Shown: positions 3,550-32,944 of the stretch, piece after piece | How positions within the stretch are numbered: position 1 is the stretch's first letter | Layout: every line of letters begins with the position of its first letter | NCBI GenBank assembly: GCA_038045305.1 | Contig: JBBSYJ010000006.1 | Span: 1-35,977, forward strand | Length of the DNA: 35,977 bases | Direction: 5' to 3' | DNA from: Nanobdellota archaeon | GTDB lineage: Archaea; Nanobdellota; Nanobdellia; Pacearchaeales; GW2011-AR1 | Translations under genes and position numbers: made by a program | Notes under the pieces: model-generated | The model's database searches: none | Seen by the model: the letters and a program-made list of their open reading frames with translations, nothing else | What the model was told of the DNA's origin: nothing

Positions 3550-5325
3550 TTACTTCAAAGTAGATTGTCTTGGAGTTGAAAGCTCGTGCGGTCTATCATC
3601 TTTAGAAGTTGAATAAAGAACATTATCATACAAATGATGGCGAGTGGCATCTGCAAGAACATTTGGCAAATATCCTTTTCTTCGACCGTATTCCAAAAAT
3701 CTTTGGGCGGCTAAGTCCCCTTTTGGAAGAGAACCAAAATAAGGAGCTAAGTTTCCTATAATTGTTTTTTCTTGCTCACTATTTGAAATAGTCCCATTTA
3801 AAGAATGAATATAATCTATTTGTGTTAACATCTCGTTAGCTGCACCATTATTAGGGAGATTTCTTAAGTGAGCAAGAGTCATTTCACTTAATTTCTCGTT
3901 GGTAAATACTGGTTGAGTTAAATAATTACGAGCTAAAATATGCCCTTCAGGAATAAGAGCAAAAAGATTAAACTTTCTTCTTAATTCTGCATTCTGGTCT
4001 CTGTATCTTTCTAATTCATCTTGAGGAAGCCAAATTGAAGGATCATCTTTCAAAAGTTTGGCTCTTCTTGGACCCATCCACTCTTTCATAAATCGCAAAA
4101 CAGATCTGTCGAAAAAGCTGTCTTTAATATCACTATTATCACTTTGATAAAAACCAAATTCTTCACAGATATTATAAATTTTTGTTCCAAGATAAGGAAC
4201 TAAAGTAGAAGCCCATGCCATTGTTGGACCTCCAGTAACCCTTCTTAGACGAATGTTGTACTCTAACATTTCCAAATCAGCATCAAGATTCATGGAAGTA
4301 ATGTTTGAAGTTATTCCCCAAGGCAATCCGGTTATTTGCTCTGTTCTAACTTTTAACCCTAATTTCATTAATTTCTCCATACCATCAAAGACCACTTCGT
4401 CGTCCATATGTCTATCAAGAATTTTTTTCCTCATTTCAGGATCTGCTGCTTCTATAGCGTGAGTCGCGCCAGAGGCCCCAGCTTTCTTAATTAAATCCAA
4501 ACGTTTGTCACTTTTTGTCATCTCCCATCTCATTTGATAATGGAAAGGAATTCCAACTTGCTCGGGCCAGGTCTCTGAAAATTGATCTAAAAAGCCACCA
4601 ACTTTATCATCAAATCCAAAAACGTCATCTTGGAAATATATTGTTTCTGCAGGCCATCTTTCATTAATTTCTCTACCCTCCCTTAAGATACTGTCTAAAT
4701 TTCTTATGTTTTGAGGGAATAATCTTTCACCCATGCCTTGTTTTATAAATGCTGCAGCTACTTCTGGAGAGATTTTTAATTCTTTTAAAGTGCTGCTGTT
4801 ATAACAATAAGTGCAACCATAGGGACAACCAGTCATAGTTATCATACTTTTTATTTTGCTTTTTGCATGCTCTGGATAGTCCGAATAAAATGTCTCTCTA
4901 TCAGGAAAAGGAAATGTCTCTAATTCTGTAAGAGGCATGATTCCAGGTTTTGCTTGTCCTCTTAAAATTTTTCTAAATGAATTAAAACCCTCACTCATAA
5001 CAACAAAGTCTGCAGATCCTAAAGATTCTTCTGGAAAATAAGTCGGATGATAACCACCAACGATAGTTTGAATACTTGGAAAATCTTGTTTTAATCTTTT
5101 AAAAGCTTCATGTAACTTCCGATCATTTCCAGTGTAAACTGTAAATCCAACAACATCTGGCTTAAAAGCTTTAACAAACTTAAAAAAAGGTTCGTAATCG
5201 TGATCTTTAACAAGGATATATTCTCTATCCCATCCTTCGTCACGTGCTAAACCCCCAAGATGTAACAAACCTAAAGGTTCAATTGCTGAATAAGCTGCCC
5301 CCAATGCTACTCTTTTTTTTGCCAT
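3550..5325 (-). CDS. B12-binding-domain radical SAM protein
   Basis: The N-terminal region is Rossmann-like and cobalamin-domain-like (DVVGFTVYTGN...TIVGGYHPT). It is followed by the CxxxCxxC cluster motif GCPYGCTYCYN. 591 aa. It looks GC-richer than its neighbours by eye. Confidence 0.8.
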   Translation of the reverse strand: MAKKRVALGAAYSAIEPLGLLHLGGLARDEGWDREYILVKDHDYEPFFKFVKAFKPDVVGFTVYTGNDRKLHEAFKRLKQDFPSIQTIVGGYHPTYFPEESLGSADFVVMSEGFNSFRKILRGQAKPGIMPLTELETFPFPDRETFYSDYPEHAKSKIKSMITMTGCPYGCTYCYNSSTLKELKISPEVAAAFIKQGMGERLFPQNIRNLDSILREGREINERWPAETIYFQDDVFGFDDKVGGFLDQFSETWPEQVGIPFHYQMRWEMTKSDKRLDLIKKAGASGATHAIEAADPEMRKKILDRHMDDEVVFDGMEKLMKLGLKVRTEQITGLPWGITSNITSMNLDADLEMLEYNIRLRRVTGGPTMAWASTLVPYLGTKIYNICEEFGFYQSDNSDIKDSFFDRSVLRFMKEWMGPRRAKLLKDDPSIWLPQDELERYRDQNAELRRKFNLFALIPEGHILARNYLTQPVFTNEKLSEMTLAHLRNLPNNGAANEMLTQIDYIHSLNGTISNSEQEKTIIGNLAPYFGSLPKGDLAAQRFLEYGRRKGYLPNVLADATRHHLYDNVLYSTSKDDRPHELSTPRQSTLK

Positions 5326-6744: not shown

Positions 6745-7618
6745 TCGCATCATAAACCTCATCAACTGAAACTGCAGATTGCGCTTCAGGAATATTTTGC
6801 CTTGAGAACATATACTTTCCAATTAAAGGACTGACAATCTTTTTCATTCGGCCGTAATCGTAAATTTCATTTGGAGGGGTGCAGTTGAAAATTGTTACAA
6901 GATTCTTTTTCAATCCAAGAGCAAGATGCATTCCTAAAGTATCACCGCAAACAATTAATTCGCAGCCGTTGATATCATCAATATGTTCTTTTATCGTCGG
7001 TTTCATTCCTAAAGAGATCACTTCATAACCATCACTCTGCAAACGCTTTTTAAGTTCAGGATACCCAGCCCAGTATTTGTTTGGCCATTTACTTTCTGTT
7101 ACATCAATTAATCCAATAGTTCCACGAACTTGTTCTTCCGAAAGCGGCTTAATTCCAAGATCATATTCCTGAGACGACCACTTATGCCCGAGCATTTCAG
7201 TCCAAATTTGAGGGACGGACTTCTGGTTTTGCATTTTAATTTTATCCGCCTCTTCTTTTGAGTAACGCCTACTTATGAAAGACATGTCAAGCCAGTAATC
7301 ACATTCTGAAGTGTAATCAACTTTATCGCTGCCGTCGAGAAAATGTCCAATGAGTTTTTTTGTTTTTATTCCTTTAAGGTATTCAAGCGGAGCGCGCTCT
7401 TCGTCCAAACTTAAAATCAAATCAAATTCATGTTGTTTTAATAATTCCTTATCATCTTCATTTTCAAAAATGTAGACCTTCTTTATTTTTTTAGAATTTA
7501 AAATATCTTTTGCAGCTTTGCTTGTTAACCAATGAATTTCACCATTTAATTCTGAAAGAAGAACAGTCGTTCTTACGACGTCTCCTAAGGCCCCTAGTTT
7601 TGAGATCAGAGTTTTCAT
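6722..7618 (-). CDS. Glycosyltransferase family 9-like (short heptosyltransferase-like protein)
   Basis: N-terminal KLGALGDVVRTTVLL and C-terminal CGDTLGMHLALGL, as in the GT9 GD..x and DxGxxHLA signatures. The 3' end overlaps the convergent HAD gene by 23 nt. Confidence 0.7.
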   Translation of the reverse strand: MKTLISKLGALGDVVRTTVLLSELNGEIHWLTSKAAKDILNSKKIKKVYIFENEDDKELLKQHEFDLILSLDEERAPLEYLKGIKTKKLIGHFLDGSDKVDYTSECDYWLDMSFISRRYSKEEADKIKMQNQKSVPQIWTEMLGHKWSSQEYDLGIKPLSEEQVRGTIGLIDVTESKWPNKYWAGYPELKKRLQSDGYEVISLGMKPTIKEHIDDINGCELIVCGDTLGMHLALGLKKNLVTIFNCTPPNEIYDYGRMKKIVSPLIGKYMFSRQNIPEAQSAVSVDEVYDAIKECLRN

Positions 7619-8328
7619 ATATTATCCCCCTCAAATTGTTCTGCTGAATCTTGTGGAATAAATCCTAATTGTTTTTCTAGAAAAGACAAATCTACTAGGC
7701 CGTTTTTATTTGCTGAACTGCAAGGAATGTTGACAAAGCCATTATAATTTAAACTTGCTTTTATTATTCCAGCTATATCTCTTTTACTGAGCCAATGAGA
7801 ATAATCAATAGGTTGGGAATTTGGGAAATTACATGGTTTGTCATTTTCATTTACAGAACCTAGGCGCAAATTCACAACAGAGATTTTATATTTTTTATGA
7901 TAATCTCTTCCTATTTCTTCAGATAAAAGTTTTAGTAAACCGTAATCATTTGCTGATGTCGTGGGAGTTTCTTCTGAAATCTTCTCCTTCGAATCAAAAA
8001 TTTCTTGCCAAGGATAAACATTTAAAGAACTTGCATAAATTATTCTTTTTACTTTATTCCGGACCGCAGCTTCGTAAACATTTCGTGTTCCTGTTAAATT
8101 TGGGTTAATTAAACTTATCCAATTAATATAATTTCTAACATCTGCAGCAAGATGTATTACTGTTTCAATATTTTTGAAATAGGGGAAGATTTCATGCAAA
8201 TCACATATATCTGCTTGTACAACCCCGTCACCTTTTTCTTGATCAAGTAGAACTAAATTGTGTTCTCTAAGATTTTCTTTTAAAATCCTCCCAATAGTCC
8301 CTTCAGATCCAGTAATTAAAGTTTTCAT
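7615..8328 (-). CDS. NAD-dependent epimerase/dehydratase family SDR (short form)
   Basis: TGSEGTIGRIL glycine-rich loop, ASS...YGLLK (S...YxxxK) catalytic pattern. ATGA overlaps with both neighbours indicate an operon. Confidence 0.75.
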   Translation of the reverse strand: MKTLITGSEGTIGRILKENLREHNLVLLDQEKGDGVVQADICDLHEIFPYFKNIETVIHLAADVRNYINWISLINPNLTGTRNVYEAAVRNKVKRIIYASSLNVYPWQEIFDSKEKISEETPTTSANDYGLLKLLSEEIGRDYHKKYKISVVNLRLGSVNENDKPCNFPNSQPIDYSHWLSKRDIAGIIKASLNYNGFVNIPCSSANKNGLVDLSFLEKQLGFIPQDSAEQFEGDNI

Positions 8329-12351: not shown

Positions 12352-12469
12352 AAAGTTTAATTTTGAAAGAATATCATGCTGCTGTAGTTTAATTAAAACA
12401 CTTGCTTAGTTTGCAAGAGATGTTGGTGAAAACCCTTCCGGTGGCTCCAATATAACTATTAAAGTAAAA

Positions 12470-14219: not shown

Positions 14220-15182
14220 ATGAAGCCGAAGAAGATATTAGTAATAAAGAACGATCATATAGGAGATATGATTCTTACAACTGGGGTCTTCAGAGAGTTG
14301 AAGAAAGAATATCCAAAGGCAAAGATAACTGTTGTGGCCTCTAATGCAAATAAGTCAATGTTAGAAAGTAATCCTTATATTAATGAAGTAATTGTTGTGG
14401 ATCATGGTAAAAAATTCTTGAAAAATTGGAAGAATTACTCTCAACTTAAGAAGAGAATAAGAGATGAAAAGTACGACGTTGCAATTGACTTAAGGGGGGA
14501 CTTTTTAAATATATTTTTCTTAATGTACTTGACTGGAATAAAAAAAAGATTGGGATTCTATAAAAGCAATTGGTCAAAAATGCTTCTGAATTTCGGCAAA
14601 AAAAGGGATATAGAAAAACATGAAATAAAAAATATGTTTGAAGTTGTAAATGAAGGACTTGGAATAAAAAGGAAAAATATAAAGCCGGAAATCTTCGTGA
14701 GTGAGAAAGATAAAAAAGAATTAGTAGAATATATAGCAAAGAATAAACTTGATAAATTTGTATGCGTATGCCCTGATGCAAGCCATCCACTTCGGCTTTT
14801 GCCTTTGGAAGAATTTGACAAAATTATAAAATATATCAAAGAAAATTATCCACAATACAAAATATTAGTGATTGGAGTAAGCGACAGAGTTGACAAACTT
14901 GTGCAAGACAATCCAGGGACGATCTCATTAAAATTTGCAAACCTTAAAATGCTTTATTTATTATTCCAAAAAAGTGCCGTTGTATTTAGTTTAGATACTG
15001 GGACTACGCCATTGTCATGGGCAGGAAATTCTAATTTGATAAATATATTGTTAAAATTTAGCGTTCCTTACAGAGAACATTTAAAACCATTAGGTAAAAA
15101 TGCTATCGTCGTTTGGGAAAAGGACGAGCCTTTGAAAGCAGAAGACATAATTAAAGAACTGCCAAGATTCTTGCAAAAGTAA
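14220..15182 (+). CDS. Glycosyltransferase family 9-like
   Basis: KILVIKNDHIGDMILTTGVFRELKKEYP is a typical GT9 N-terminus. The C-terminal VFSLDTGTTPLSWAG is a variant of DxGxxHLA. It is divergent from the previous GT9. Confidence 0.7.
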   Translation: MKPKKILVIKNDHIGDMILTTGVFRELKKEYPKAKITVVASNANKSMLESNPYINEVIVVDHGKKFLKNWKNYSQLKKRIRDEKYDVAIDLRGDFLNIFFLMYLTGIKKRLGFYKSNWSKMLLNFGKKRDIEKHEIKNMFEVVNEGLGIKRKNIKPEIFVSEKDKKELVEYIAKNKLDKFVCVCPDASHPLRLLPLEEFDKIIKYIKENYPQYKILVIGVSDRVDKLVQDNPGTISLKFANLKMLYLLFQKSAVVFSLDTGTTPLSWAGNSNLINILLKFSVPYREHLKPLGKNAIVVWEKDEPLKAEDIIKELPRFLQK

Positions 15183-15225: not shown

Positions 15226-15618
15226 ATGGAAATGCCTTTATCAGAATTGATTGATAAGTTAAGCATTGTAAAACTTAAAATAGAAAGAGTAGGAGAACCG
15301 CAATTGCAAAAAGAGTATGAAGCATATTTAGAAGCAATTGAAGAGTTTGAAAAGAAAGGTGTAAATGTCAGAAAGGAATGGTTGGAAGAATTGTATAACA
15401 TAAACAAACAGTGTTGGGATTTAGAGTGGGAAGCACGAAAGATAACAGCTTCGGCAAATATATGGGAAGAAGCAGAGAAATTTGGTCTTGCAGAACTTGG
15501 AAGAAGGGCATTAATAATTGGGGATTTAATGAAAAGAAGATCTGATGTTAAAAGTGATATTGCACGCGAAAGTAAAATTGGTTTCGAAGATAAAAAGATA
15601 AATCACGTTGGAAATTAG
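15226..15618 (+). CDS. Small helical protein of unknown function, paralog A
   Basis: 130 aa. Clear paralog of 19807..20175: shared [11 protein letters not shown] / MEIPLSELIDR, NxxxWDL and ES.xGFxDxKxN blocks. The charged heptad-like composition suggests a helical bundle. Confidence 0.7.
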
Positions 15619-17981
15619 ATCTCTTTTGTTTTTATCTCTCCGTGCTCAAAATAAACTACTTCAGGATAAGGTAATGGAAAAATAAATCTCCCTCCTTGAA
15701 TTAAAAATTCCTTTTCACGTTCAATAAATCCGGACTTAAAATGCCATGGCAAAACAAGATAATAGTGTGGATGAGCTTTTCTTGAGTCATCTTCGGAGAT
15801 TATAGGTATGTCGGTTCCAGGGGTTTTTTTACCCCATTTAAATTCATTTCGTTCTGCTGCTGCCTCGCAAATGTTTTTATCAATTCCCAAATATTGGATT
15901 AAAACATTTCCTTTAGTTGAAGCACCGTATAAATGAATTTTCTTATGATTAAGTTTTTCCGTTATCAAGAAATCTTTTAATTTTATCTTTATAACTTCTA
16001 CACGCTTTACAAATTCTGAGTATGGTTTTCTTGTATGAAGCTCGAGATTCCTTTCATATTCTCTTACTTTTTGCACGTCAGAGTTAATATTTCTATTATT
16101 TGAGTCATGACAAATATAAAGACGAAAACTTCCGCCGTTAACGTCGTTAAAAGAAATATCAAAGACCTTTAATCCAACTTTAGAAAGCATCCATTCAATT
16201 TGCTTTAAAGAATAATATTCCAAATGTTCTTGACAAATTGTATCAAAAGAATTTATCTCAAGCATTCGTGGCATGTAACTTTGCTCGCAAATCCAAATTC
16301 CATCCTGGTGCAAAACATCCTTAACTTGTTTAACAAACTCCATCGGCTCGTCAAGATCATAGAACATTGCTATTGAGGTAATAATCTTTGCTTTCTTGTT
16401 TGGGTGAATTGATTTAAATTTATCAGAACTGAAAAAATCAACAATTAATTTTATATTTTCAGGATAGTAATTCTCATATTTCTTGCTTGTAGGGTCTATT
16501 CCAATCTTTTCAAGATTTGGATTTTTATAGGCCTTAAGCAAAACACCGTCGCTGCTTCCAATATCAAGGGCTACGTCGCCTTCATTTATCTCAACAAGTT
16601 TTTCAGTAGTGTTTGCCATTTCAGTCAAATGATTCACCATTGAATTATTAAGACCAGAACGATAACCATAGGTATCTCCATACATTTCTTTTAAGTCAGC
16701 TGTATGTTTTAACTGCACTAAACCACAAGCGGAAGAATCCTCAGAATCATCACACTTTATTAATTCTAAAGGAACTTTCATCGGCTCTTCTTCAATTACA
16801 GATGGAAATCTGCCAGACAAATACTGGTTTCCTAAATTCATAAGAGAAATTAAATTTCTGTTTCCACATATGCGACATTTATCTATAGTTCTTATTTTGA
16901 ACGACTCTTCATTAAACCCTTTTTGTTTTAAATATAACTCTCTTTCAGCCAACATCAAATCATGCTCGGCCATTATTCTTACTAACTCTTTGAACCTAAC
17001 TTTTGCTTCCCAACCCAATTCATGTTTTATCTTTGAAGGATCGGCCAGTAAAATATCAACTTCTGCTGGGCGAAAATAAAGAGGATTTATGTCGATGACA
17101 ACATTTCCTTTTTCATCAAGATATTTTTCATTTATACCAGACATTCCATTTGACTTTATATTCAATCCAAGAACTCGGGCTGTCTCTTCCAAAAATTCCC
17201 TTACAGTATGTTTCTCTCCAGTTCCTACGACATAATCAGACGGACTTTCTTGCTGAAGCATTAACCACATTGCTTCAACATACTCTTTTGCATAACCCCA
17301 ATCTCTTTCAGCATCTAGATTTCCTAAAGATAATTTCTTCTGCAGACCTAATTTAATCCTTGCAAGAGAAATAGTTATTTTTCTAGTCACGAAGGACTCG
17401 CCTCGCCTTTCTGATTCATGGTTAAATAAAATTCCATTGCAAGCAAAAATTCCATATGCCTCCCGCGCGCCAATTGTTTCCCAGTAAGAAAAGACCTTTG
17501 CACGCGCGTATGGACTTCTAGGATAAAAAGGGGTTTTTTCACTTTGAGGAATCTCAACAACTTTACCAAACATTTCTGAAGAACTTGCTTGATAGAATTT
17601 TGCTTTGGGACAGAATTTTCTCATTGCTTCTAAAATTCTCAAAGTTCCTAAAGCAACAATGTTTGAAGTACTTTCGGGAATATCAAAACTAATTCTTACA
17701 TGGCTTTGTGCTCCAAGATTGTAAATTTCATCCGGCTGGACGGTGCGTATAATTTCTTCAATTGATGAAGAATCAGTCAAATCGCCGTAATGCAAATAGA
17801 AATTTTTTTTAGGAGTGTCTGAAGTGTAAGTTCCTTCTTCTTGAATATGAACTATTCTTTCTCTATTAAAAGTACTTGTCCTTCTTATAACGCCGTGAAC
17901 TTCATAGCCCTTAGACAACAAAAAGTCCGCAAGGTAAGAACCATCCTGTCCAGTAATCCCGGTAATTATTGCCCTTTTCAT
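15615..17981 (-). CDS. gmd: Fusion of GDP-mannose 4,6-dehydratase (N-terminal) to an NDP-hexose C-methyltransferase (C-terminal)
   Basis: aa 1-~350 carry [41 protein letters not shown] and [21 protein letters not shown], the GMD hallmarks. From aa ~369 come [25 protein letters not shown] (Zn-ribbon), [10 protein letters not shown] (SAM site) and the C-terminal domain of TylCIII-type C-methyltransferases. It is a single 788-aa ORF. Confidence 0.85.
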
Positions 17982-18066
17982 AAAAACCCTTCGTTAAAAA
18001 TAGTTTATAAAAATATATGTATAATTTGGTAATTAATAACTTAAAGGAATATAGAAATAGACTTAA

Positions 18067-18720
18067 TTAAATTCTCATTTCTAAGGCCTTCATTGCCAAA
18101 TCTGAACCATCAAGTAAATAAGGATCTTTAGCAGCATGTTCTGCCCTAAACGATTCCCAATATTCTTTTGGTGTAATTATGCTTGGATTTTTATGTTCAT
18201 GATTAAGAGCTATTTCAGAACCTTCATTGGCTTCCGCATAAAATACATCTGACGTAGAATAACATCCCCTATTGTTATAACCCTTTCCTCCAGAATTTCT
18301 AACATCAGTGGGACTTATTGAATATATAGCTGCACTTGCATGCATTAAATAAAGAATGTTTTCTTGATTTAAATCCAAACCACTCTCTCCTTTTGTTTTT
18401 TTTATTAAAGATTTAAGGGGATGAAGACCTGCATCCATTCCTCCTCCAATTGGCCATAAAAGGCCCTTACATGGTTCTTCTAATCTTACTACATACAATA
18501 GACCAGGCATCCCTTTTTCATCATTTAATTTTATATAAACATCATGACAGGCCCTAATACATTTTTGCTGAAGTTCTCCAAATACTTGGTCATCAAGAAA
18601 TGTAAATCCTTTTGGCCTTAATACAGATATATCTACTTCACTTCCACTAGGATCCTGAGAATATACTCTAAGAGGAGGCAACCCTAATTTTCTTTGAATT
18701 TCTTGAAATGTATTTACCAT
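18067..18720 (-). CDS. Hypothetical protein, Nudix-fold-like with a degenerate Nudix box
   Basis: LLYVVRLEEPCKGLLWPIGGGMDAGLHPLKSLIKKTKGESGL aligns by eye to the Nudix pattern (LL.v.R...kG.W..PGG...GE....a.REl.EE.Gl). Most catalytic Glu positions are replaced. It looks slightly GC-richer than its neighbours. Confidence 0.4.
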   Translation of the reverse strand: MVNTFQEIQRKLGLPPLRVYSQDPSGSEVDISVLRPKGFTFLDDQVFGELQQKCIRACHDVYIKLNDEKGMPGLLYVVRLEEPCKGLLWPIGGGMDAGLHPLKSLIKKTKGESGLDLNQENILYLMHASAAIYSISPTDVRNSGGKGYNNRGCYSTSDVFYAEANEGSEIALNHEHKNPSIITPKEYWESFRAEHAAKDPYLLDGSDLAMKALEMRI

Positions 18721-18760
18721 AAAAAGTCATAAAAAAGTTTCTTTAAAAAAATTGTTATCT

Positions 18761-19735
18761 TCACTTATTAATATCAAATTCAACCATTTCTTTAATAATT
18801 TCAGGGAAAGAATAATGCGGTCTCCAACCAATTGATTTTAATTTAGAATTATTTCCTTTTATTACTCTGTCGTCCGGGCGGAAGAATTCAGGATTTACTT
18901 CTACAAGAAGTTTTCCGTTTTTGTCATAACCTTTTTCATTTACCCCTTCTCCTTTCCAATAGATATTCATTCCCACATATTTAAAGGCCAGATCTACAAA
19001 GTCCCTTACTGTATGATCCTCACCAAGAGAAATTACATAATCAGAAGAACTTGGTTGCTGCATTATTTGATATATAGCGTTTGCGGTGTCTTTCGCATGA
19101 ATCCAGTCTCTTTGTGAGTTTAAATTACCTAAAGATAATTTCTCCAACTTTCCTTTCTTTATCTTTACAACACTATCAGTTATCTTTTTAGTTACAAATG
19201 CATCCCCTCTCTTTGACGACTCTGAATTAAAGATTATGCCATTACAAGAAAAAAGACCTTGCATTTCTCTAGAATATTTTATAAATTGAAACGCAGCCAA
19301 TTTTGCAATAGCATAAGGATTTTTTGGATCAAAGGCCGTATTTTCATCGACAACTCCAGACATGTTTCCGTAAAACTCAGCAGAGCCGGCTTGGAATATT
19401 TTTATCTTTGGATTTAACCTTCTGACAACTTCGCATATTTTTATTACTGGAAGCAAATTTACTTTCATAGTATATTCTGGTTCATTGATTGAAACCCGTG
19501 CATTTGATAAAGCAGCTAAATTATAAATTTCGTCGGGAGAAGAAATAGCAATTGCTTTTTCCAAAGAGTTTAAATCCTCTAAGTCGCCAAACAAAGGCTC
19601 AACTTTATCAACTAATCTCTCTTCTTTGCCTTTTCTTACAAACCCAAAAACATTATAGCCATTTTCAATAAGTATTTCAGATAGATAACTTCCTATTTGT
19701 CCGCTTGCTCCTGTTACTAATGCTGTTTTAGGCAT
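18761..19735 (-). CDS. GDP-mannose 4,6-dehydratase-family SDR paralog (dehydratase or 4-keto reductase)
   Basis: VTGASGQIGSYLSEILIENGYNVFGFVR, GSAEFYG, YAIAK, GIIFNSESSKRGDAFVTKKIT. It follows the GMD lineage, but NHES is changed to NSES. 324 aa. Confidence 0.75.
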   Translation of the reverse strand: MPKTALVTGASGQIGSYLSEILIENGYNVFGFVRKGKEERLVDKVEPLFGDLEDLNSLEKAIAISSPDEIYNLAALSNARVSINEPEYTMKVNLLPVIKICEVVRRLNPKIKIFQAGSAEFYGNMSGVVDENTAFDPKNPYAIAKLAAFQFIKYSREMQGLFSCNGIIFNSESSKRGDAFVTKKITDSVVKIKKGKLEKLSLGNLNSQRDWIHAKDTANAIYQIMQQPSSSDYVISLGEDHTVRDFVDLAFKYVGMNIYWKGEGVNEKGYDKNGKLLVEVNPEFFRPDDRVIKGNNSKLKSIGWRPHYSFPEIIKEMVEFDINK

Positions 19736-19806
19736 AAAGATAGGATTTTTTTATTGTTTATATAGATTTCTGCAAAAACTTTTAAAGGGTTAAACTATGG
19801 AAATTC

Positions 19807-20175
19807 ATGGAAATACCTTTGTCAGAATTAATAGATAGAATGACTGTTTTAAGAATAAAAGTCCAGAACACTGAAAATCCTAATGTTAAAAAAGAGCTAG
19901 ATCTTGTAGAAGAGGCATTAAGAAATTTTGAAATGAAAAAAGGAAAAATAGACAAGAATCTCATAAATAACTTACAAATAATCAATCAAGAGCTTTGGGA
20001 TTTGGTGGCTGAATTAAGCGATGCCAAAAAAGAAAATAAAAGTTTAGAAGAAATTGGACGAATTTACATAAGGCAGCATATAGCAAACAAAAAAAGAATT
20101 CAAATAAAAAATAAAATTGCGGAAGAAAGCGGCTCAGGATTTAAAGATATTAAAGTCAATTCTAACTTCAATTAA
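19807..20175 (+). CDS. Small helical protein of unknown function, paralog B
   Basis: 122 aa paralog of 15226..15618. The first ~30 nt of the two genes are also about 85% identical at the DNA level. Confidence 0.7.
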   Translation: MEIPLSELIDRMTVLRIKVQNTENPNVKKELDLVEEALRNFEMKKGKIDKNLINNLQIINQELWDLVAELSDAKKENKSLEEIGRIYIRQHIANKKRIQIKNKIAEESGSGFKDIKVNSNFN

Positions 20176-20176
20176 A

Positions 20177-20884
20177 ATGAGCAAGGAAGATTTTAATCCT
20201 ACACTTAAGAGTTCTCTTAAGAAAAAAGGGTCTATAAAATTCGCTTTAGATGGGATAAAGTTGGTATTTGAATATATTTATTACATTCTCTTTAAATGGA
20301 GGAAATTTCATTTAAACGACGCAACTTACAATTATTTTTATTATCCTTATAATGCCACATGGAGAAATGAAAGAGAAGTTGAAGTTCCAATAGTTTGGAA
20401 TGAAGTAAAAAAATGTGAACCAGAAAAGGTCTTGGAAATTGGGAATGTTTTGTCGCATTATTTCAATGTAAAGCATGACATTCTTGATAAATATGAAAAA
20501 CTTCCCAGAATAATCAATGAAGATGCTACAAATTTCAAGACAGATAAAAGATATGACTTGATTGTAGCAATATCTACATTTGAACATGTTGGATGGGATG
20601 AAAGTCCAAAAGAACCAACAAAAATAATAAAGACTATTGAAAACCTAAAGAAACTTCTATCTAAGAATGGGAAAATTATTTTTACAATTCCAGCAGATTA
20701 TAATCCAGAACTTGATAAACTCATAAAAAAAGGGAAAATAAGATTAAATGAGGTTTATTTTATGAAACGTATTTCAAAAGATAATAAATGGATCCAGATA
20801 GAAGAAAAAGACATAGAAGGAATAAAATTTGAAAGCCCTTTTCCTAGAGCGAATGGATTAATTATTGGTTTTATTAATAAATGA
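20177..20884 (+). CDS. Class I SAM-dependent methyltransferase-like protein
   Basis: The track ORF starts at 20117 and overlaps the previous gene. The ATG at 20177, 1 nt after the upstream stop, gives MSKEDF... NEREVEVP, VLEIGNVLS and DLIVAISTFEHVG resemble methyltransferase motifs I and post-II. Confidence 0.6.
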   Translation: MSKEDFNPTLKSSLKKKGSIKFALDGIKLVFEYIYYILFKWRKFHLNDATYNYFYYPYNATWRNEREVEVPIVWNEVKKCEPEKVLEIGNVLSHYFNVKHDILDKYEKLPRIINEDATNFKTDKRYDLIVAISTFEHVGWDESPKEPTKIIKTIENLKKLLSKNGKIIFTIPADYNPELDKLIKKGKIRLNEVYFMKRISKDNKWIQIEEKDIEGIKFESPFPRANGLIIGFINK

Positions 20885-22429
20885 ATTTGACATCTTATTT
20901 TTTATAGTTCTCAAAATTAAAAGATCATTTTTGTCAAGCGATTTGGTTAATAAAATCATTACAAAATAAATTAACAAAAATAGCAAACCCAATAAGACTA
21001 AAGAAAAGAAGTTTATTGGAATTAAATTTCTTAAGTATAACAACACGCCACCAGCAACAAATGCGGAGAATAAAACCCCAAACATTTTTCTCTTTAAAGG
21101 CAAAAATCCTAAATAATGATAGGTTTGCGCAAAGGTCAAAATGCTATAAATAGTATAGGCAATTGTTGTGGCTATTGCTGCTCCGATAATTCCTTCAGAA
21201 TTATCTAGTGAAAATATAACCGGCTTTGGAATTAATATAAAATTAAGAACTGCATCTATAACAAGCGCTATTAAGATATTAACAAATCGTATCTTTGATT
21301 TTTTTATCATTCCAAGAAGATTCAGACCTATTTCGGACTGGGCATAAAAGAAAAATCCTATTGAAAGGATAGATAAAGCATAGCCCCCTGAAATGAATTT
21401 AGCCCCAAATAAAATATTTAACATCGCTTTAGGAAAGAAAATTGTAAAGAATAACAAAGGCAAGTTTAAAATAAATATCCATTTTCCTACTTGCTTACTC
21501 AAATCTTTTATTAAATTATGATTATTCTTTGAATACTCTTTATTTATTATAGGGAAGAAAAGTTGGACGAACAAGAAAGATGCAAGAGTTAAAGTCGTTG
21601 CAATAGGCAGTGCAGAATCATAAACCCCGACATTTGACGCATTTTTCAAATAACCTAATGAGAAAATATCAACCCAACCAAGCAAAGAAGAGACGAACGC
21701 GGCAAACATTAAAGGGATTGAGTAAGATAATAACTCTTTGCTAATACCTTCATAGTCTGAGGACTTATTAGTTAAATTAGTAAAATATTTAATTGCATAT
21801 TTTCTGCACAAATAATACGAACTAATTAACAATAATAAATATCCGATCACAACTGAAAACCCAATTGAAGAGGAATTAAATCCTAAGAAGATTAAGGTTA
21901 CTAAAGCAATTACTCTTATTAATGGATTAAAAATGTTAATTAAGAAAGAATATTCCGAAACCTTTTCAAATGCCTTCATTGTTCCTAATAAAATTTGGGA
22001 AATTGCAAAAAGCGGGACAGTAATGCTAAATATTTGCAAAAATAAAGTTAAATTATTATTATGAAAGATTCTAGTTGCTAGCTCTCCTGCAGAAAGATAC
22101 ATAATAACTCCAAAAAAGAGACTCAAAAGAACTGTTAACAACAATGCAAATGTAAAGATCTTTTTAATCTTTAAAAAGTCATTTTTCCCTCGGTAAAAAG
22201 AGATATAACGTATTACCCCTTCTCCAAGTCCTACAAGTGAGAAGATAACAAACCACCCAGAGACCATAAAAGAAATTGAGAATAAGCCATAAGTATCCGG
22301 GCCAAAATGTCGTGCAATTATTACTCTGAAAACATAGCTCAATAAACTGGAAAAGATTAATCCAATTAATACAATTATAGAACTACGGGCCAGAAATTTC
22401 AAATTTTTATTAAGTTCTTCATTCTCCAT
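20858..22429 (-). CDS. wzx: Wzx-type oligo/polysaccharide flippase (MOP superfamily)
   Basis: 523 aa with about 14 TM helices. The layout is typical of polysaccharide biosynthesis protein families. The 3' end overlaps the convergent gene by 27 nt. Confidence 0.75.
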   Translation of the reverse strand: MENEELNKNLKFLARSSIIVLIGLIFSSLLSYVFRVIIARHFGPDTYGLFSISFMVSGWFVIFSLVGLGEGVIRYISFYRGKNDFLKIKKIFTFALLLTVLLSLFFGVIMYLSAGELATRIFHNNNLTLFLQIFSITVPLFAISQILLGTMKAFEKVSEYSFLINIFNPLIRVIALVTLIFLGFNSSSIGFSVVIGYLLLLISSYYLCRKYAIKYFTNLTNKSSDYEGISKELLSYSIPLMFAAFVSSLLGWVDIFSLGYLKNASNVGVYDSALPIATTLTLASFLFVQLFFPIINKEYSKNNHNLIKDLSKQVGKWIFILNLPLLFFTIFFPKAMLNILFGAKFISGGYALSILSIGFFFYAQSEIGLNLLGMIKKSKIRFVNILIALVIDAVLNFILIPKPVIFSLDNSEGIIGAAIATTIAYTIYSILTFAQTYHYLGFLPLKRKMFGVLFSAFVAGGVLLYLRNLIPINFFSLVLLGLLFLLIYFVMILLTKSLDKNDLLILRTIKNKMSNSFINKTNN

Positions 22430-22453: not shown

Positions 22454-23188
22454 TTAATCTTTTTTGGAATGATTTTGAGCCACAATAAAGATACTTACTC
22501 CAAAAGGAAAATTCAAATATTTTAGTAAGATATTCTCAAAGAATAAAAGTTTCGTCAATAAAAAGTTTATTATTTTCGGTGTTTTAGCTAAATTGGCTTT
22601 TTTTGAATTTGGTTTTATTAGTTTTTGTGTAAAACGAACCAAAGTTATGGGCACAAAGAGAAAGAAATTCCAATAAGATAATTTTAAGATCTTCCAATCA
22701 TAGAATAGTCTTGAAAAGGATTTTTTATCATATCTTTGATAATGATGATTTATCTCATCGTGACTGCTCCATAGGAAATTAAATGCCGGGCAGAAACAAA
22801 TTAATAATCCGCCATCTTTAAGCAAGGACTTCCAGTTTTTTGCTGCGGCATTTCTATCTTTTATATGTTCAAGCACGTCAGACGCTATAAGAATGTCAAA
22901 TTTCTTTTTAAGTTTTATTTTTTGCGCATCCATAAAAGAGCATGGGATGTTCTTTTCTTTACATATCTCTATTGCGTCTTTACTTATATCAATACCAAAA
23001 ACGTTAGAGTAATCTTCTTTATTTAATTCCTCAATTAAATCACCGCCTGAACACCCAATATCAAGAATTTCTGAGGTCTTGGGTATTTTGTAAATATCAA
23101 AAATTTTTAAGATCATATCACGCCTTGCAACAAACCACCAATGATCTTTTTCAAGGGAGTGATACTTCGCCTCAAATGATTTATCCAT
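22454..23188 (-). CDS. Class I SAM-dependent methyltransferase with a C-terminal hydrophobic tail
   Basis: ILDIGCSGGDLIEEL (motif I) and FDILIASDVLEHI (motif II/III). The C-terminus has WNFFLFVPITLV and FGVSIFIV segments. Confidence 0.8.
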   Translation of the reverse strand: MDKSFEAKYHSLEKDHWWFVARRDMILKIFDIYKIPKTSEILDIGCSGGDLIEELNKEDYSNVFGIDISKDAIEICKEKNIPCSFMDAQKIKLKKKFDILIASDVLEHIKDRNAAAKNWKSLLKDGGLLICFCPAFNFLWSSHDEINHHYQRYDKKSFSRLFYDWKILKLSYWNFFLFVPITLVRFTQKLIKPNSKKANLAKTPKIINFLLTKLLFFENILLKYLNFPFGVSIFIVAQNHSKKD

Positions 23189-24656
23189 TTATCTTTCTCC
23201 AAACATAAAGCCCCTCATATTTTTTATATAATTCAAAATTGGAATATCTAAAATCATCACCAAATGTTATGGCATAATTCACATTATTTAAATTTTCATG
23301 CAAATTATTCCCGTCAATCCCTCCGGCAAACCATATTAAACGCCTTTCATTTATATTTGGAATTGGTTCAAATTTCTTAGATAATATCTTAGAATTGTTT
23401 TCTAAAAATAATTGATAGTCCTGTATGCTTATGAATTCATTAATTCCACTACCCCAATAAATATGTGCTAATTTCCGGTAATCATCATCCAAGTTGCCGA
23501 CAATAAAGGACTCATTCTTAAAATCAACTGCAATTTTGTCCAAATCAGAGGATATAATAGATTCTCGGCTAATTGACGATAAATTTGGATTTTCTGGATT
23601 TTGTAATATGTAAGTTATGTCTCTCCCATCCAAAGTGTTTGGATGGTAATAAAATTGTACTACATATGGAAAGATGAAGATTAAAGATATTACTAATGAA
23701 AATATAATCTGTTTCTTCATTCTTTTTTGATCAATATATTTTATACCAGTTAACAAAAGTATAGGAAAAATAGAAAACACATACCTTACTTGAGGATTTA
23801 TAAAAATTAATAAAAGACATAAAGTGAGAAATATAATTGTTTTTTTATTTTGCTTCAGATTTTCAATAGAGTAATTCTTCCAATAGTATAAAGGTATGGA
23901 AACCAAAATTAACAATAACAATATTATTTTATTAAATAATCCTCCAGCGTAGGAGGTACCTCTACCAAATAAAAAGGCGTTCGCCAAAGTACCAAGGAAA
24001 CTCTTCATAATACTGAAAAGTGCAAAATTAAAAAGATATTGATCAAGTAAAAGTCTCGGCATAATCCCTACAAATATAGCTAAAGACAACAGGGTAAAGT
24101 GGCTGAATTTCTTATTATACATAAATACAAAGGCCATGAACAACCCAAAAAAGATAATTGTGTCCCAAAAGATATAAGATAACCCTAAAGAAATTCCGGC
24201 AAAGGATAAACAATACATATCATTGTTTGTATCATATTTTTTTATAAAAAACCAAGCCCATAAAAGGAAAAAGGAGGAGATGATTATAGGAGTAATCCAA
24301 GGGGATATATACCAAACAGCTGGTGCAACAAGAGATAATAAGATAATTCTTTTGTCTTTGCCGCTTATAAAATACATTGATAAGAGGATTAAGAATATAA
24401 AAATTAAGTTTACAATTTTGAATGCAAAATAATTATTTAGTAAGCCAACTAAAGGGGACATAATAAATCCATAAAAATAAGAGTGCGAGCTTCTTATTCC
24501 TGCGTTATAATCCCCTGAAAAGTATTTTGCGACATCAGAATAATCCCCTATGTCTGTGTATCCATAAAATGAGGTTAAAATTGTTACAATTACCAATAAA
24601 ATTGAAAGTAAAATGATCGCATTCTTGTAAGTTAAGTTAAATTTCCACTCTTTCAT
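23181..24656 (-). CDS. Polytopic membrane protein; candidate GT-C-like glycosyltransferase or Wzy-like polymerase
   Basis: 491 aa with about 11 TM helices. An acidic first loop (YTDIGDYSD) is followed by a ~150-aa soluble C-terminal domain. No diagnostic motif was recognised. Confidence 0.35.
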   Translation of the reverse strand: MKEWKFNLTYKNAIILLSILLVIVTILTSFYGYTDIGDYSDVAKYFSGDYNAGIRSSHSYFYGFIMSPLVGLLNNYFAFKIVNLIFIFLILLSMYFISGKDKRIILLSLVAPAVWYISPWITPIIISSFFLLWAWFFIKKYDTNNDMYCLSFAGISLGLSYIFWDTIIFFGLFMAFVFMYNKKFSHFTLLSLAIFVGIMPRLLLDQYLFNFALFSIMKSFLGTLANAFLFGRGTSYAGGLFNKIILLLLILVSIPLYYWKNYSIENLKQNKKTIIFLTLCLLLIFINPQVRYVFSIFPILLLTGIKYIDQKRMKKQIIFSLVISLIFIFPYVVQFYYHPNTLDGRDITYILQNPENPNLSSISRESIISSDLDKIAVDFKNESFIVGNLDDDYRKLAHIYWGSGINEFISIQDYQLFLENNSKILSKKFEPIPNINERRLIWFAGGIDGNNLHENLNNVNYAITFGDDFRYSNFELYKKYEGLYVWRKING

Positions 24657-26511
24657 TTTCTATGTAAATTTTGTACCATATCTGGAAAATCAACAAAGTC
24701 CAGAGCTGTCTTGAATAATACAAAGGGGACTTTTTGAAATTCGAATTTATTTCTTTTATGTATTTATAATTGAATATCCCTTGTTTTTTAAGGTATTCCT
24801 CAGATAAAAGAGTATGACGCAAGGGCATTAAGTCCTTTGCTATCCATTTTTCTATAGGAACAAAAAAGTATTGCTTTTTTCTATCTTTTGTTTGCTTAGG
24901 AATTAGGCCTTTGAACGTTTCTCTCAAGATGTACTTATCTTTGACAAAGTTCTTTATCTTTAGTTTTTGATCTATCTTGGCTGCTAGCTCCACGAGACGG
25001 TAATCTAGAAATGGAACACGCCCTTCAATTGCAGAGGCCATAGTCATTTTGTCAATTTTCATAAGCAAATCCTCAACCATTGGATTTTTAAAATCAAGTT
25101 CTTCCGTGGAATTAATTATATCTTCTTTATTCAGAATTTTCTTCTCTTCATGTACTTGTGGGATCAATAATTCTTTCTTTTCCTTTTCATCAAATATAGA
25201 AATCTGGGCAGAATATTGCTCAAAGGGATTGTTTGAAAGAATAAATCTTTCCAGACGTTCTTTTCCTTTTTTTCCCAATGAAGAGCTATATTTGAATCTT
25301 TTATTAAGAATAGAATTTGGAATTAATCTAAATAAATTTAGAGCAAATTTTCTAATAAATAAAGGAGTTTTTGAAAGGATTTTGGAATGAAAATTCAGAA
25401 ATTTGTAATGCGCATAGCCGCCAAATATTTCATCAGATCCCTCACCAGTTAAAATGACTGTGCAATACTTTTTTGCATATTTGGACAAAAAATAGATTGG
25501 TATTAAAGTAGGGTCTGCAATCGGTTCATCAGAATGATAAACAATATCTGGAAGTTTTTTTATAGAGGACTCATCTATTAAAAGCTCGTGGTGATCTGTA
25601 TCTAGCTTCTTTGCCAGAAAACGCGCCTCATTTGTCTCTGAATATTTTTGTTCTTTAAAACCGACAGAGAATGTTTTAACTTTTTGTGGTGAGAACTTTT
25701 TCATTAATGAAACAATAATCCCAGAATCTACACCTCCTGAAAGATAAGCCCCATAAGGAACATCACTCATAAGGCGACCCTTTACAGAATCGTTTAATAA
25801 ATCTTGTATTTTCTTAGATAAATAATTTTCAGATGATATCTTTGAGGAAAAAGAAATGTCCCAGTATTTCTTTAATGAGTAAGACTTACTTGTTAAATCA
25901 TAAATTAATAAACTTCCGGGAGGAAGTTTTTTTATTCCTTTAATAAAAGACTCATCTGTTGTATTTGCCCTAAATGTGAGGTATGTATCTAAAGCAGAAA
26001 GATTAACCTCTTTTTTTATTCCTTTGTATAAAAGCAAGCTTTTTATTTCAGAAGCAAAGATAAATTTTGAATCATACGAAAAATAGTAAAGCGGCTTTAT
26101 TCCAACTCTGTCGCGAGCCAAGATAAGTTTCTTATTTTTTACATCGTAAATGCACAAGGCAAACATTCCTTGTAATTGATTAACAAAGTCCAGGCCTTTT
26201 TCTTCATATAAATGCAAGATTATTTCTGTATCTGTATTTGACTTAAATTTATGCTTCTGTTTAAGGTTATTTTTTATTTCCTTATAATTATATATCTCCC
26301 CATTAAATATTATCCAAAGAGTTTTGTCTTCGTTTGACATTGGTTGAATGCCTGATTTTGATAAATCAAGAATAGATAATCTATTATGACCTAAAGAAAC
26401 AGACCTATCCAGGAAAGTTGAAGTCGCGTCAGGGCCCCGGTGTTTAATTTTTTGTAAACAACTTTTTAGTAATTTCTTATCATTCCAGTTAAACCCGATT
26501 ATTCCACACAT
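24637..26511 (-). CDS. asnB: Asparagine synthase (glutamine-hydrolysing) family amidotransferase
   Basis: N-terminal nucleophile MCGIIGF, and the PP-loop YLSGGVDSG. 624 aa. Confidence 0.9.
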   Translation of the reverse strand: MCGIIGFNWNDKKLLKSCLQKIKHRGPDATSTFLDRSVSLGHNRLSILDLSKSGIQPMSNEDKTLWIIFNGEIYNYKEIKNNLKQKHKFKSNTDTEIILHLYEEKGLDFVNQLQGMFALCIYDVKNKKLILARDRVGIKPLYYFSYDSKFIFASEIKSLLLYKGIKKEVNLSALDTYLTFRANTTDESFIKGIKKLPPGSLLIYDLTSKSYSLKKYWDISFSSKISSENYLSKKIQDLLNDSVKGRLMSDVPYGAYLSGGVDSGIIVSLMKKFSPQKVKTFSVGFKEQKYSETNEARFLAKKLDTDHHELLIDESSIKKLPDIVYHSDEPIADPTLIPIYFLSKYAKKYCTVILTGEGSDEIFGGYAHYKFLNFHSKILSKTPLFIRKFALNLFRLIPNSILNKRFKYSSSLGKKGKERLERFILSNNPFEQYSAQISIFDEKEKKELLIPQVHEEKKILNKEDIINSTEELDFKNPMVEDLLMKIDKMTMASAIEGRVPFLDYRLVELAAKIDQKLKIKNFVKDKYILRETFKGLIPKQTKDRKKQYFFVPIEKWIAKDLMPLRHTLLSEEYLKKQGIFNYKYIKEINSNFKKSPLYYSRQLWTLLIFQIWYKIYIENERVEI

Positions 26512-30807: not shown

Positions 30808-30879
30808 TGCGCGGACCGGGATTCGAACCCGGATCTCCTGCTTGGAAGGCAGAAAGTCTAGCCATTGACCTATCCACGC
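30808..30879 (-). tRNA. tRNA-Gly (anticodon UCC)
   Basis: Hand fold of the reverse complement: GCGTGGA-TA-GGTC-AATGGCTA-GACT-T-TCTGC-CTTCCAA-GCAGG-AGAT-CCGGG-TTCGAAT-CCCGG-TCCGCGC-A. It forms a 72-nt cloverleaf with no encoded CCA. Confidence 0.85.
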
Positions 30880-31712: not shown

Positions 31713-31789
31713 TCAATAAGGTATAACTAAAAGATTATAAATATTACTATCTCGTACTACCCGTTAGACCATATCATAATAAATCCAAA

Positions 31790-31886
31790 CGCCCCCGGCA
31801 GGATTTGAACCTGCGACCTACGCCTTTATCAAACTTGCCTTGATTGTTAGGACGGCGCCACTCTATCCGGGCTGAGCTACAGGGGC
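31790..31886 (-). tRNA. Intron-containing tRNA, probably tRNA-Arg (CCU)
   Basis: Reverse complement: GCCCCTG-TA-GCTC-AGCCCGGATA-GAGT-G-GCGCC-[29 nt]-GGCGT-AGGTC-GCAGG-TTCAAAT-CCTGC-CGGGGGC-G. The 29 nt between the anticodon stem halves are a 7-nt loop plus a 22-nt insert. Canonical 37/38 placement gives the loop GUCCUAA (anticodon CCU). CCA (Trp) is not excluded. Confidence 0.65.
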
Positions 31887-31889
31887 ATA

Positions 31890-31973
31890 TGCGGAAGACA
31901 GGGATCGAACCTGCGCAGGCACTAAGCCACAAGAGCCTTAATCTTGCCTATTTGACCACTCTAGCACTCCCGC
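31890..31973 (-). tRNA. Type II tRNA-Leu with apparent anticodon AAG
   Basis: Reverse complement: GCGGGAG-TG-CTAGAGTGGTCAAATAG-G-CAAGA-TTAAGGC-TCTTG-[15-nt variable arm with GGC/GCC stem]-GCAGG-TTCGATC-CCTGT-CTTCCGC-A. 84 nt, lying 3 nt upstream of the next tRNA. Confidence 0.75.
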
Positions 31974-32723: not shown

Positions 32724-32792
32724 CTATTTCAAGAGGTAAGTGAAATATTAAATTGTTTCAATAATTCCAGAATAGTAAACAAAAAACAAAAG

Positions 32793-32800
32793 TTTAAAAA
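32793..32800 (+). promoter_or_regulatory. TATA-like box upstream of 5S rRNA
   Basis: TTTAAAAA lies about 22-30 nt upstream of the inferred 5S 5' end. Confidence 0.4.
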
Positions 32801-32821
32801 CTACTATTTATCTCAAATATT

Positions 32822-32933
<112 letters not shown>

Positions 32934-32934
32934 A

Positions 32935-32944
32935 CTTTTCTTTT
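32935..32944 (+). terminator. Oligo-T tract after 5S rRNA
   Basis: TTTTCTTTTT lies immediately 3' of the 5S closing helix. Archaeal RNAP terminates at such T-runs. Confidence 0.4.

Follow-up and report, generated by a model that had tools for sequence, protein, structure and literature searches.

A putative GDP-linked route to a methyl-branched 6-deoxy sugar, built around a dehydratase–C-methyltransferase fusion protein in a DPANN archaeon

To our knowledge, nearly all that is known of C-methyl-branched sugars comes from dTDP-linked antibiotic pathways. A GDP-linked route has been proposed for virenose (6-deoxy-3-C-methyl-gulose) of Coxiella burnetii, on the basis of in silico work from 2011-2012 (PMC3204966, PMC3539893). 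That route comprises gmd, the TylCIII-like C-methyltransferase CBU_0691, and then an epimerase/reductase (PMC3204966, PMC3539893); it was the only case of a GDP-linked C-methyl sugar that we found in the literature searched. In this report, we examine positions 15226-20884 of a complete 35,977-bp contig, hereafter termed “the window”, from a metagenome-assembled genome (MAG) of the Nanoarchaeota (DPANN). We propose, with a probability of roughly 0.6 for the core pathway, that the genes located there make a GDP-linked, methyl-branched 6-deoxy sugar and use it in a surface glycan. An initial annotation of the region had arrived at a route from GDP-mannose to a C-methyl 6-deoxyhexose, and this is still the most economical reading. 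It had also spoken of seven adjacent genes, where we find six open reading frames (ORFs), here called A to F, as many as its own list of items contains. Further, its author knew of no described GDP-linked, archaeal version of such a pathway; given the Coxiella proposal (PMC3204966, PMC3539893) and the gmd-C-methyltransferase cassettes present in many bacterial and archaeal genomes, a GDP-linked pathway as such is not without precedent.

The central element of the locus is protein B (788 aa; 15615-17981, minus strand), in which a GDP-mannose 4,6-dehydratase (GMD) is joined to an S-adenosylmethionine (SAM)-dependent sugar C-methyltransferase, as identified from profile and PDB matches. The GMD domain spans residues ~1-350 (16932-17981, minus strand). 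Residues 2-343 score 500.9 bits on the TIGR01472 gmd equivalog (cutoff 415), and this half matches GMDs of known structure with E-values of 1e-128 to 1e-119. Its catalytic set reads SSE...Y...K. The reference for this set (Ser/Thr-x-Glu, Tyr and Lys) was Thr133, Glu135, Tyr157 and Lys161 of the E. coli enzyme, aligned from what we take to be its sequence. The C-methyltransferase domain (residues ~364-776; 15654-16892, minus strand) consists of a zinc-binding subdomain, a SAM-binding domain and a C-terminal domain. Residues 369-771 are matched by Methyltransf_13, Methyltransf_23 and Methyltransf_14, the first and last of which exceed their cutoffs; the C-methyltransferase scores are 49.3 bits on PF08421 (cutoff 31.3) and 155.6 bits on PF08484 (cutoff 23.5). 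Its best solved relatives, to which it aligns over the full length, are MtmC (4rv9, E 6e-53), TcaB9 and KijD1 (E 6e-53 to 3e-29). The C-terminal half thus does match sugar C-methyltransferase families, and the GMD::C-methyltransferase fusion named in the initial annotation is borne out.

Conservation and assembly data agree with this assignment. The four zinc-site cysteines (Cys369, Cys372, Cys410 and Cys419) do not vary among 28 fusion proteins. Glu585-His586 of B align with Glu224-His225 of TcaB9, which we take to be that enzyme’s active-site dyad, and His586 is invariant in the same 28 fusions. The 788-codon ORF is uninterrupted and identical in three independent assemblies (Logan, ENA and NCBI). 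We conclude that B is a true fusion of a GMD and a sugar C-methyltransferase of the TylC3/TcaB9/MtmC type. The NCBI annotation of the contig contains only the C-terminal 426 aa of B, as a “class I SAM-dependent methyltransferase” (MEK6894942.1), and we came across no protein record of its own for the GMD half. The public record thus does not reveal the fusion. The split recurs in a sister MAG (Q7S56 locus tags), where the protein has 446 aa.

Such fusions are not rare, but common in metagenomes of DPANN archaea and of the candidate phyla radiation (CPR). Among the best 120 relatives of B, 52 are fusions in the same domain order and 33 in the reverse order (85/120 together), and one Nanoarchaeota protein, P0066, is a Nudix-C-methyltransferase-GMD triple fusion; the named sources of these relatives are Nanoarchaeota, Patescibacteria and WWE3. 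The occurrence of both domain orders implies that the fusions arose independently, which is strong evidence that GMD and C-methyltransferase act in sequence on one substrate. Unfused, gmd and the C-methyltransferase are paired in a wide range of bacteria and archaea, often with a second GMD-like SDR. A scan of one genome per species gave at least 595 loci with a relative, and neighbors within 4 kb of the C-methyltransferase were counted for the best 80. A true GMD is present at 36 of these 80 loci, a second, lower-scoring short-chain dehydrogenase/reductase (SDR) of the GMD family at 39, and a DegT aminotransferase at 11, with the second SDR or DegT at 48. The order gmd, C-methyltransferase, second GMD-like SDR is seen in Verrucomicrobiota, Polyangiaceae, Methanoregula and cultured Nocardia, and related gmd-C-methyltransferase arrangements occur in Planctomycetes, Mesorhizobium and Spirulina. 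In one bacterial cassette, the second SDR belongs to the GMD clade and is not Rmd-like. The recurrence of the cassette across bacteria and archaea means that a duplicated GMD flanking a C-methyltransferase is a general design, not one specific to the window. The idea that the entire six-gene set is kept across the 80 genome loci was rejected; only the core of gmd, C-methyltransferase and SDR or DegT is conserved there.

Closer relatives of the locus retain more of it. In the window, the minus strand carries D, C and B as one unit. A lies on the plus strand after a gene for a glycosyltransferase of family 9 (GT9) and converges on B with a 4-nt overlap, and E and F form a plus-strand unit divergent from D. 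In locus L083, a fusion 73% identical to B is accompanied by a D ortholog, a 174-aa Nudix protein, a pair of small helical proteins like A and E, a GT9 gene and an F homolog. Locus L084 has the fusion, DegT, a 185-aa Nudix protein, the helical pair and GT9, with no F homolog; the P0005 contig likewise has the fusion, DegT, the helical pair and GT9. In L091, a fusion occurs with a 280-aa SDR, the helical pair, GT9 and an F homolog, and there is no Nudix gene. L086 carries the fusion, a second SDR::C-methyltransferase fusion, DegT and a 187-aa Nudix protein; the helical pair and F homolog are missing, and no GT9 was seen. Finally, L092 and L093 were retrieved with the A-type helical protein as the sole query. 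Each encodes an unfused C-methyltransferase, two adjacent GMD-family genes (with a GMD-like SDR as the partner), the helical pair and GT9, and neither has a Nudix gene or F homolog. The neighborhood is thus conserved in L083, L084, L091, L092, L093 and the P0005 contig, and the six-gene set is probably one functional unit. Further, what adjoins the C-methyltransferase is sometimes a reductase-type SDR and sometimes an aminotransferase, which points to a slot for processing the 4-keto group.

In the window, this slot is held by protein D (324 aa; 18761-19735, minus strand), a diverged GMD paralog that we propose to be a 4-ketoreductase. Its score of 319.8 bits on PF16363 confirms the second GMD-family SDR of the initial annotation; on TIGR01472, it reaches 304.4 bits, under the cutoff of 415. 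D is 40% identical to the GMD half of B (E 6e-90). In the PDB, it matches the GMD 2z1m (E 4e-81) far better than the Rmd enzymes 2pk3 (E 1.4e-24) and 6x3b (E 4e-12); this comparison places D in the GMD clade, and its assignment by homology to the Rmd family of reductases was rejected. D keeps the Ser-x-Glu, Tyr and Lys of GMDs (SAE...Y...K; Glu135, Tyr157, Lys161) and most of the substrate contacts. It departs from the GMD consensus at ~45 of ~105 near-invariant positions, including changes of GQDG to GQIG (in the cofactor motif), NHES to NSES and QSHV to LSNA, all of them common to the L083 ortholog (489 bits). The NCBI product name is GDP-mannose 4,6-dehydratase. We favor a role for D as the reductase of the 4-keto group, by analogy with the known reductase side-activity of some GMDs and from gene context; a passage in PMC3539893 states that some GMDs reduce their own product. 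The main argument is that D would resolve the 4-keto group because the slot beside the C-methyltransferase holds an SDR or an aminotransferase.

Other fusions were encountered along the way. Metagenomic relatives of B include GMD::DegT aminotransferase and tandem GMD::GMD fusions (P0060, P0069, P0078, P0107, P0116, P0117, P0119; P0039 and others). The GMD::DegT proteins look like single-polypeptide systems for GDP-perosamine synthesis. Orthology of D to the second domain of the tandem proteins was unsupported, as both tandem domains resemble B more than D. In these lineages, GMD seems generally prone to fusion with the enzyme that acts after it. Related DPANN loci encode further C-methyltransferase fusions: a 576-aa C-methyltransferase::dTDP_sugar_isom (RmlC-like) protein at 2899-4629 of L084, and a 770-aa protein that joins a non-GMD SDR to a C-methyltransferase at 6708-9020 of L086, where it adjoins the GMD::C-methyltransferase fusion. 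B12-binding radical SAM proteins also recur: one is encoded in the glycan cluster of the window (3550-5325, minus strand), two such genes flank the fusion in L084 (6295-7686 and 14107-15474), and P0091, a relative of B, is a B12-radical-SAM::GMD fusion. This linkage could reflect a second, radical type of methylation on GDP-sugars.

The initial annotation called protein C (217 aa; 18067-18720, minus strand) Nudix-like, and it was right; the resemblance emerges only from homologs and a structure model. By itself, C matches no Pfam model, PF00293 included; a word-indexed search with C as the sole query gave no homologs, and C alone gave only a chance match among PDB sequences. The Nudix proteins that adjoin the fusion in L083, L084 and L086 are homologous to C (E 6e-9 to 5e-30) and score 24.9-28.8 bits on PF00293 (cutoff 21.1); a Nudix homolog is likewise next to the fusion in L056. 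The family is rare, with 78 representatives among 1.84 billion proteins in an exhaustive HMMER search. The AlphaFold2 (AF2) model of C (pLDDT 89.2) has a Nudix fold, with a low-confidence insertion of ~10 residues in the window copy. A Foldseek search with this model gave 461 PDB matches at E<=0.001; all 50 of those listed have the Nudix fold, and the highest TM-scores (0.74-0.76) belong to E. coli GDP-mannose mannosyl hydrolase (GDPMH; 2i8t, 1rya). Likewise, the top PDB matches of the family profile are GDPMH entries 2i8t (E 4.6e-13) and 1rya (E 1.8e-12), aligned over nearly the full length.

The motifs of C tell a similar story. Of the canonical Nudix box GX5EX7REUXEEXGU, only Gly93, Glu112, Gly114 and Leu115 remain. 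GDPMH has the same reduced pattern, with equal spacing from the Gly to its Glu70 (Glu112 in C); the “degenerate” box of C is, judging from this alignment, of the GDPMH type. Asp22, Arg37, Glu70 and His124 of GDPMH align with invariant residues of the C family (Asp60, Arg79, Glu112 and His176 in C), and Lys107 takes the place of Arg65. Catalytic roles in GDPMH are, we presume, played by these five residues together with Arg52 and Tyr103. The C family has invariants of its own: Cys58-His59 in a Cys-His-Asp motif, Trp89, a GTD motif and LHPY. In E. coli, gmm adjoins gmd-fcl, so the pairing of gmd with a Nudix gene is classical. GDPMH is a sugar-nucleotide hydrolase, and a relative such as C has no obvious biosynthetic step. 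By analogy, our default reading is that C probably hydrolyzes a GDP-sugar, thereby regulating the pool or clearing intermediates that have left the pathway. Two members of the family carry extra domains: P0171 (308 aa) is fused to a cupin domain, and P0123 (353 aa) contains a second Nudix domain. The cupin fusion hints at a link to sugar isomerase/epimerase chemistry.

Proteins A (130 aa; 15226-15618, plus strand) and E (122 aa; 19807-20175, plus strand) are paralogs, with 34% identity (E 7e-21), and represent an A-type of ~131 aa and an E-type of ~118-125 aa. The initial annotation had presented the locus as built from duplicated parts. The paralogy holds for both pairs (the GMDs at 40% and the helical proteins at 34% identity); recent local duplication was rejected, as each type of A/E and of B GMD/D is separately conserved in relatives and belongs to an old orthologous group. 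A and E fall under the Pfam gathering score of 27 bits for DUF6165/DUF4254 (13.6 and 14.6 bits, respectively) and are distant members of that group: of 43 family members compared with these models at E<=0.01, DUF6165 picks up 33 and DUF4254 picks up 20, weakly and across almost their entire length. At E<=0.001, the family comprises no fewer than 227 proteins in subtypes of ~122 and ~131 aa, all annotated as hypothetical. The AF2 model of A (pLDDT 91.4) is a five-helix bundle with no significant neighbor among PDB folds (best E 1.2); on this result, we abandoned the idea that A has the fold of MazG or of another known helical enzyme. The family profile found nothing meaningful among PDB sequences, and the literature searched held no functional work on DUF4254 or DUF6165. 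Conserved polar residues (Asp10, Lys18, Glu30, Asn60, Trp64, Arg105 and Lys109) suggest a specific binding or catalytic site.

GT9 is the neighbor of the A-type gene in the window, L083, L084 and the P0005 contig. In the window and in L083, F directly follows the E-type gene; orthologs of E are present in L083, L084, L091, L092 and L093. Every locus in which an A-type and E-type pair was seen also has a C-methyltransferase and a GMD, and the full combination of helical pair, C-methyltransferase, GMD and GT9 is found in the window, L083, L084, L091, L092, L093 and the P0005 contig. The A/E pair is thus a conserved accessory, tightly linked to the set and with no assignable enzymatic role; a heterodimeric accessory function is a guess.

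Protein F (235 aa; 20177-20884, plus strand) is taken from the ATG chosen by gene callers, which lies two bases past the stop codon of E in an ORF of 20117-20884. The initial annotation described it as methyltransferase-like. It does bear a weak resemblance to class I methyltransferases; its scores lie below every methyltransferase threshold, and its motif I reads LEIGNV rather than an intact glycine-rich motif. F has no NCBIfam match and no PDB sequence match. Its orthologs in L083 and L091 score 350 and 244 bits, respectively. It is possible, on these resemblances, that F is a sugar O-methyltransferase. The GT9 gene directly upstream of A (14220-15182, plus strand; PF01075 57.9 bits, cutoff 22) has orthologs or family members beside the helical proteins in L083, L084, L091, L092, L093 and the P0005 contig, and is likely to encode the transferase for the modified sugar.

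The data above show the domain identities, the conservation of catalytic residues, the paralogy and the recurrent gene association; we infer the substrates, the position and stereochemistry of methylation, the reductase activity of D and what A, C, E and F do. Within B, the GMD domain would convert GDP-D-mannose to GDP-4-keto-6-deoxy-D-mannose. The TylC3/TcaB9-type domain would then use SAM to methylate a carbon adjoining the 4-keto group, most likely C-3, and the fusion would hand the labile keto-sugar directly from one active site of B to the other. D, a GMD paralog with a remodeled cofactor site, would use NAD(P)H to reduce the 4-keto group, giving a GDP-6-deoxy-3-C-methyl-hexose of the evalose or virenose class. 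F may O-methylate the sugar. Last, GT9 would move it to a lipid-linked glycan, and a Wzx-type flippase would export the product.

A number of observations weigh against this scheme. The literature searched held no biochemically characterized GDP-sugar C-methyltransferase, and profile scans found no NTP_transferase or GDP-mannose pyrophosphorylase encoded in the window. As to the position of methylation, the TylC3-type family includes C-5 methyltransferases (NovU). Further, the sugar-pocket residues His181 and Tyr222 of TcaB9, both kept in MtmC, correspond to Tyr541 and Cys583 in B, and Tyr and Cys are also the consensus of the GMD-linked clade. The same chemistry could therefore act at C-5, which flanks the 4-keto group as C-3 does, to yield a 5-C-methyl (gem-dimethyl) 6-deoxyhexose. 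Every matching solved relative is a C-3 enzyme, however, and virenose, the only proposed GDP-linked precedent, is a 3-C-methyl sugar; we consider methylation at C-5 unlikely. The role of D is open to a different objection. MtmC, the closest solved relative of the C-methyltransferase of B, is described in a passage of PMC3539893 as also having 4-ketoreductase activity, so D may be unneeded for reduction. D retains the dehydratase Glu, is far nearer to GMDs than to Rmd and could, from its sequence, be a second dehydratase. B alone might then complete the sugar by an MtmC-like, NADPH-dependent 4-reduction, with D serving as the dehydratase for a second GDP-sugar branch, such as GDP-D-rhamnose or a GDP-hexose/heptose. 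The retained S-x-E, Tyr and Lys, the sugar contacts, the best matches to true GMDs and the NCBI name of D would all suit that arrangement. The shortfall of D on the gmd equivalog (304 vs 415), the altered positions that it shares with its L083 ortholog (GQDG and NHES among them), and the use of the equivalent slot in relatives for a reductase-type SDR or an aminotransferase argue the other way, as does the absence from the window of a downstream enzyme for a second branch (e.g., an Fcl-like protein). On balance, we judge it improbable that B acts without D, and we retain D as the favored 4-ketoreductase.

Doubts also attach to the outer members of the set. In C, the equivalent of GDPMH Arg52 is Gly94 (the family consensus is Arg), and the family does not conserve Tyr103. 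L091, L092 and L093 have no Nudix gene, nor do 79 of the 80 genome loci. F reaches only 23.6 bits on Methyltransf_23 (cutoff 27) and 20.7 bits on Methyltransf_12 (cutoff 30), and is present in three loci only. Single 122-aa helical genes occur in clusters that lack a C-methyltransferase (L088-L090), and once in a non-glycan context; A and E are also transcribed apart from D-C-B. These facts would be expected if the six genes were not one pathway, with B, perhaps together with D, making the sugar and A, E, C and F being unrelated neighbors in a shuffled glycan cluster. The association of the A-type and E-type pair with C-methyltransferase and GMD nonetheless holds at every locus where the pair was seen, including the two loci found with the helical protein alone; the triple fusion P0066 joins the Nudix domain to the other two, and the GT9-A and E-F adjacencies are kept in L083. 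We therefore hold a chance assembly of neighbors to be very unlikely. The opposite extension is that the A/E pair and the GDPMH-like Nudix family are working parts of the GDP-linked branched-sugar system, not bystanders. The A/E pair might serve GT9 as a heterodimeric partner or as a specificity factor, and the methylated GDP-keto-sugar could be the substrate of C, which would hydrolyze or even epimerize it through its Cys-His-Asp motif. We offer this idea tentatively and think it doubtful. If true for A/E or C, it would give a first function for two uncharacterized families and define a new type of surface-sugar pathway in archaea and CPR bacteria.

The locus is part of a large glycan cluster. 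NCBI locus tags AABX48_00280 to 00310 cover 15226-20884, and an identical sequence was also assembled from Hainich groundwater (ENA Hain_H32_02um; Logan ERR3858126). The cluster contains three GT9 genes, several GT2 and GT4 genes, PMT_2 (ArnT-like), the B12-radical SAM protein, a methyltransferase, an AsnB-like amidotransferase, GtrA, and a polysaccharide flippase of the Wzx/MATE type (20858-22429, minus strand; PF01943 90.2 bits) that is syntenic in L083. The initial annotation had noted the lack of a GDP-mannose pyrophosphorylase in the window, as do we, and had called the module self-contained. The supply of GDP-mannose lies outside the window, and the gene set is not self-contained; L083, unlike the window, encodes an NTP_transferase. 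Two more genes are syntenic with the module in L083: those for the AsnB-type glutamine amidotransferase (24637-26511, minus strand) and a 491-aa multi-pass membrane protein with no Pfam match (23181-24656, minus strand). Both may function in the modification or polymerization of the same glycan.

Elsewhere in the window, a 237-aa ORF between GT9 and GT2 genes (7615-8328, minus strand) has only the N-terminal two-thirds of the NAD-dependent epimerase/dehydratase fold and may be a truncated SDR or a pseudogene. A tRNA in the middle of the glycan cluster (12378-12446, plus strand) scores 37 bits with Rfam and is not reported by ARAGORN. A small RNA cluster (30808-32935) comprises tRNA-Gly (30808-30879), tRNA-Leu (31889-31974) and a stand-alone 5S rRNA (32821-32935). 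It also includes a 97-nt tRNA (31790-31886), matched by Rfam only and missed by ARAGORN, that probably contains an intron. The G+C content of the window (~31%), the lone 5S rRNA gene and the 97-nt tRNA fit an archaeal origin. Two LAGLIDADG_3 ORFs (30870-31712 and 31938-32723) abut or overlap tRNA genes. Finally, an ABC-transporter ATPase domain split over overlapping ORFs (34828-35223 and 35160-35552, plus strand) looks like a frameshift, pseudogene or assembly error.

Taken together, the locus and its relatives are strong genomic evidence that a GDP-linked C-methyl route exists and is widespread. Carriers of the three-gene cassette include cultured Nocardia, Spirulina and Mesorhizobium, and DPANN and CPR lineages also have it. 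The fusions provide single-polypeptide candidates for in vitro chemistry, with a bearing on tests of the virenose pathway and on the surfaces of ultra-small archaea. Further, two orphan protein families, the A/E helical proteins and the C-type Nudix proteins, are now tied to a defined biochemical context.

How, then, does the locus compare to known systems? The accessory proteins have only distant counterparts. Most members of the A/E family match DUF6165 (PF19662) and DUF4254 (PF14063) weakly, with A and E themselves at 13-15 bits against a threshold of 27. C resembles the E. coli GDPMH (Gmm/NudD/WcaH) of the colanic acid cluster in its Nudix fold, in the one Glu of REUXEE that it keeps and in its linkage to gmd; in contrast to GDPMH, its family is rare, has invariant motifs of its own and is without Tyr103, and the window copy also lacks Arg52. 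The GDP-D-rhamnose pathway (GMD and Rmd, or the bifunctional GMDs of Pseudomonas aeruginosa and Aneurinibacillus thermoaerophilus) likewise has a GMD followed by a second SDR of the GMD superfamily, and D would take the role of Rmd. It differs in that D is not an Rmd by sequence and that, in the proposed route, C-methylation is inserted between dehydration and reduction.

Among the C-methyltransferases, the B domain shares with TylC3, TcaB9, KijD1 and MtmC of the dTDP-linked antibiotic pathways of actinomycetes the architecture of a four-cysteine zinc site, SAM-binding domain and C-terminal domain, as well as the Glu-His dyad. Unlike those enzymes, it is fused to a GDP-specific dehydratase; its presumed substrate, GDP-4-keto-6-deoxymannose, keeps both the 2-OH and the 3-OH; it has Tyr and Cys for His181 and Tyr222 of TcaB9; and its product would serve in a cell-surface glycan, not an antibiotic. 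The virenose route of Coxiella shares with the route proposed here the dehydration of GDP-mannose, C-methylation by a TylC3-family enzyme, reduction at C-4 and delivery of the product into a surface glycan, and both routes are known as proposals from sequence. There, the genes are separate and the reducing enzyme is of the GMER/Fcl type; in the window, dehydratase and methyltransferase are one polypeptide, the proposed reductase is a GMD paralog and the host is a DPANN archaeon. The enzyme families are thus all known, the novelty is modest, and the gene set is not a new category. What is new is the fused, GDP-linked form, accompanied by a helical protein pair and a GDPMH-like partner.

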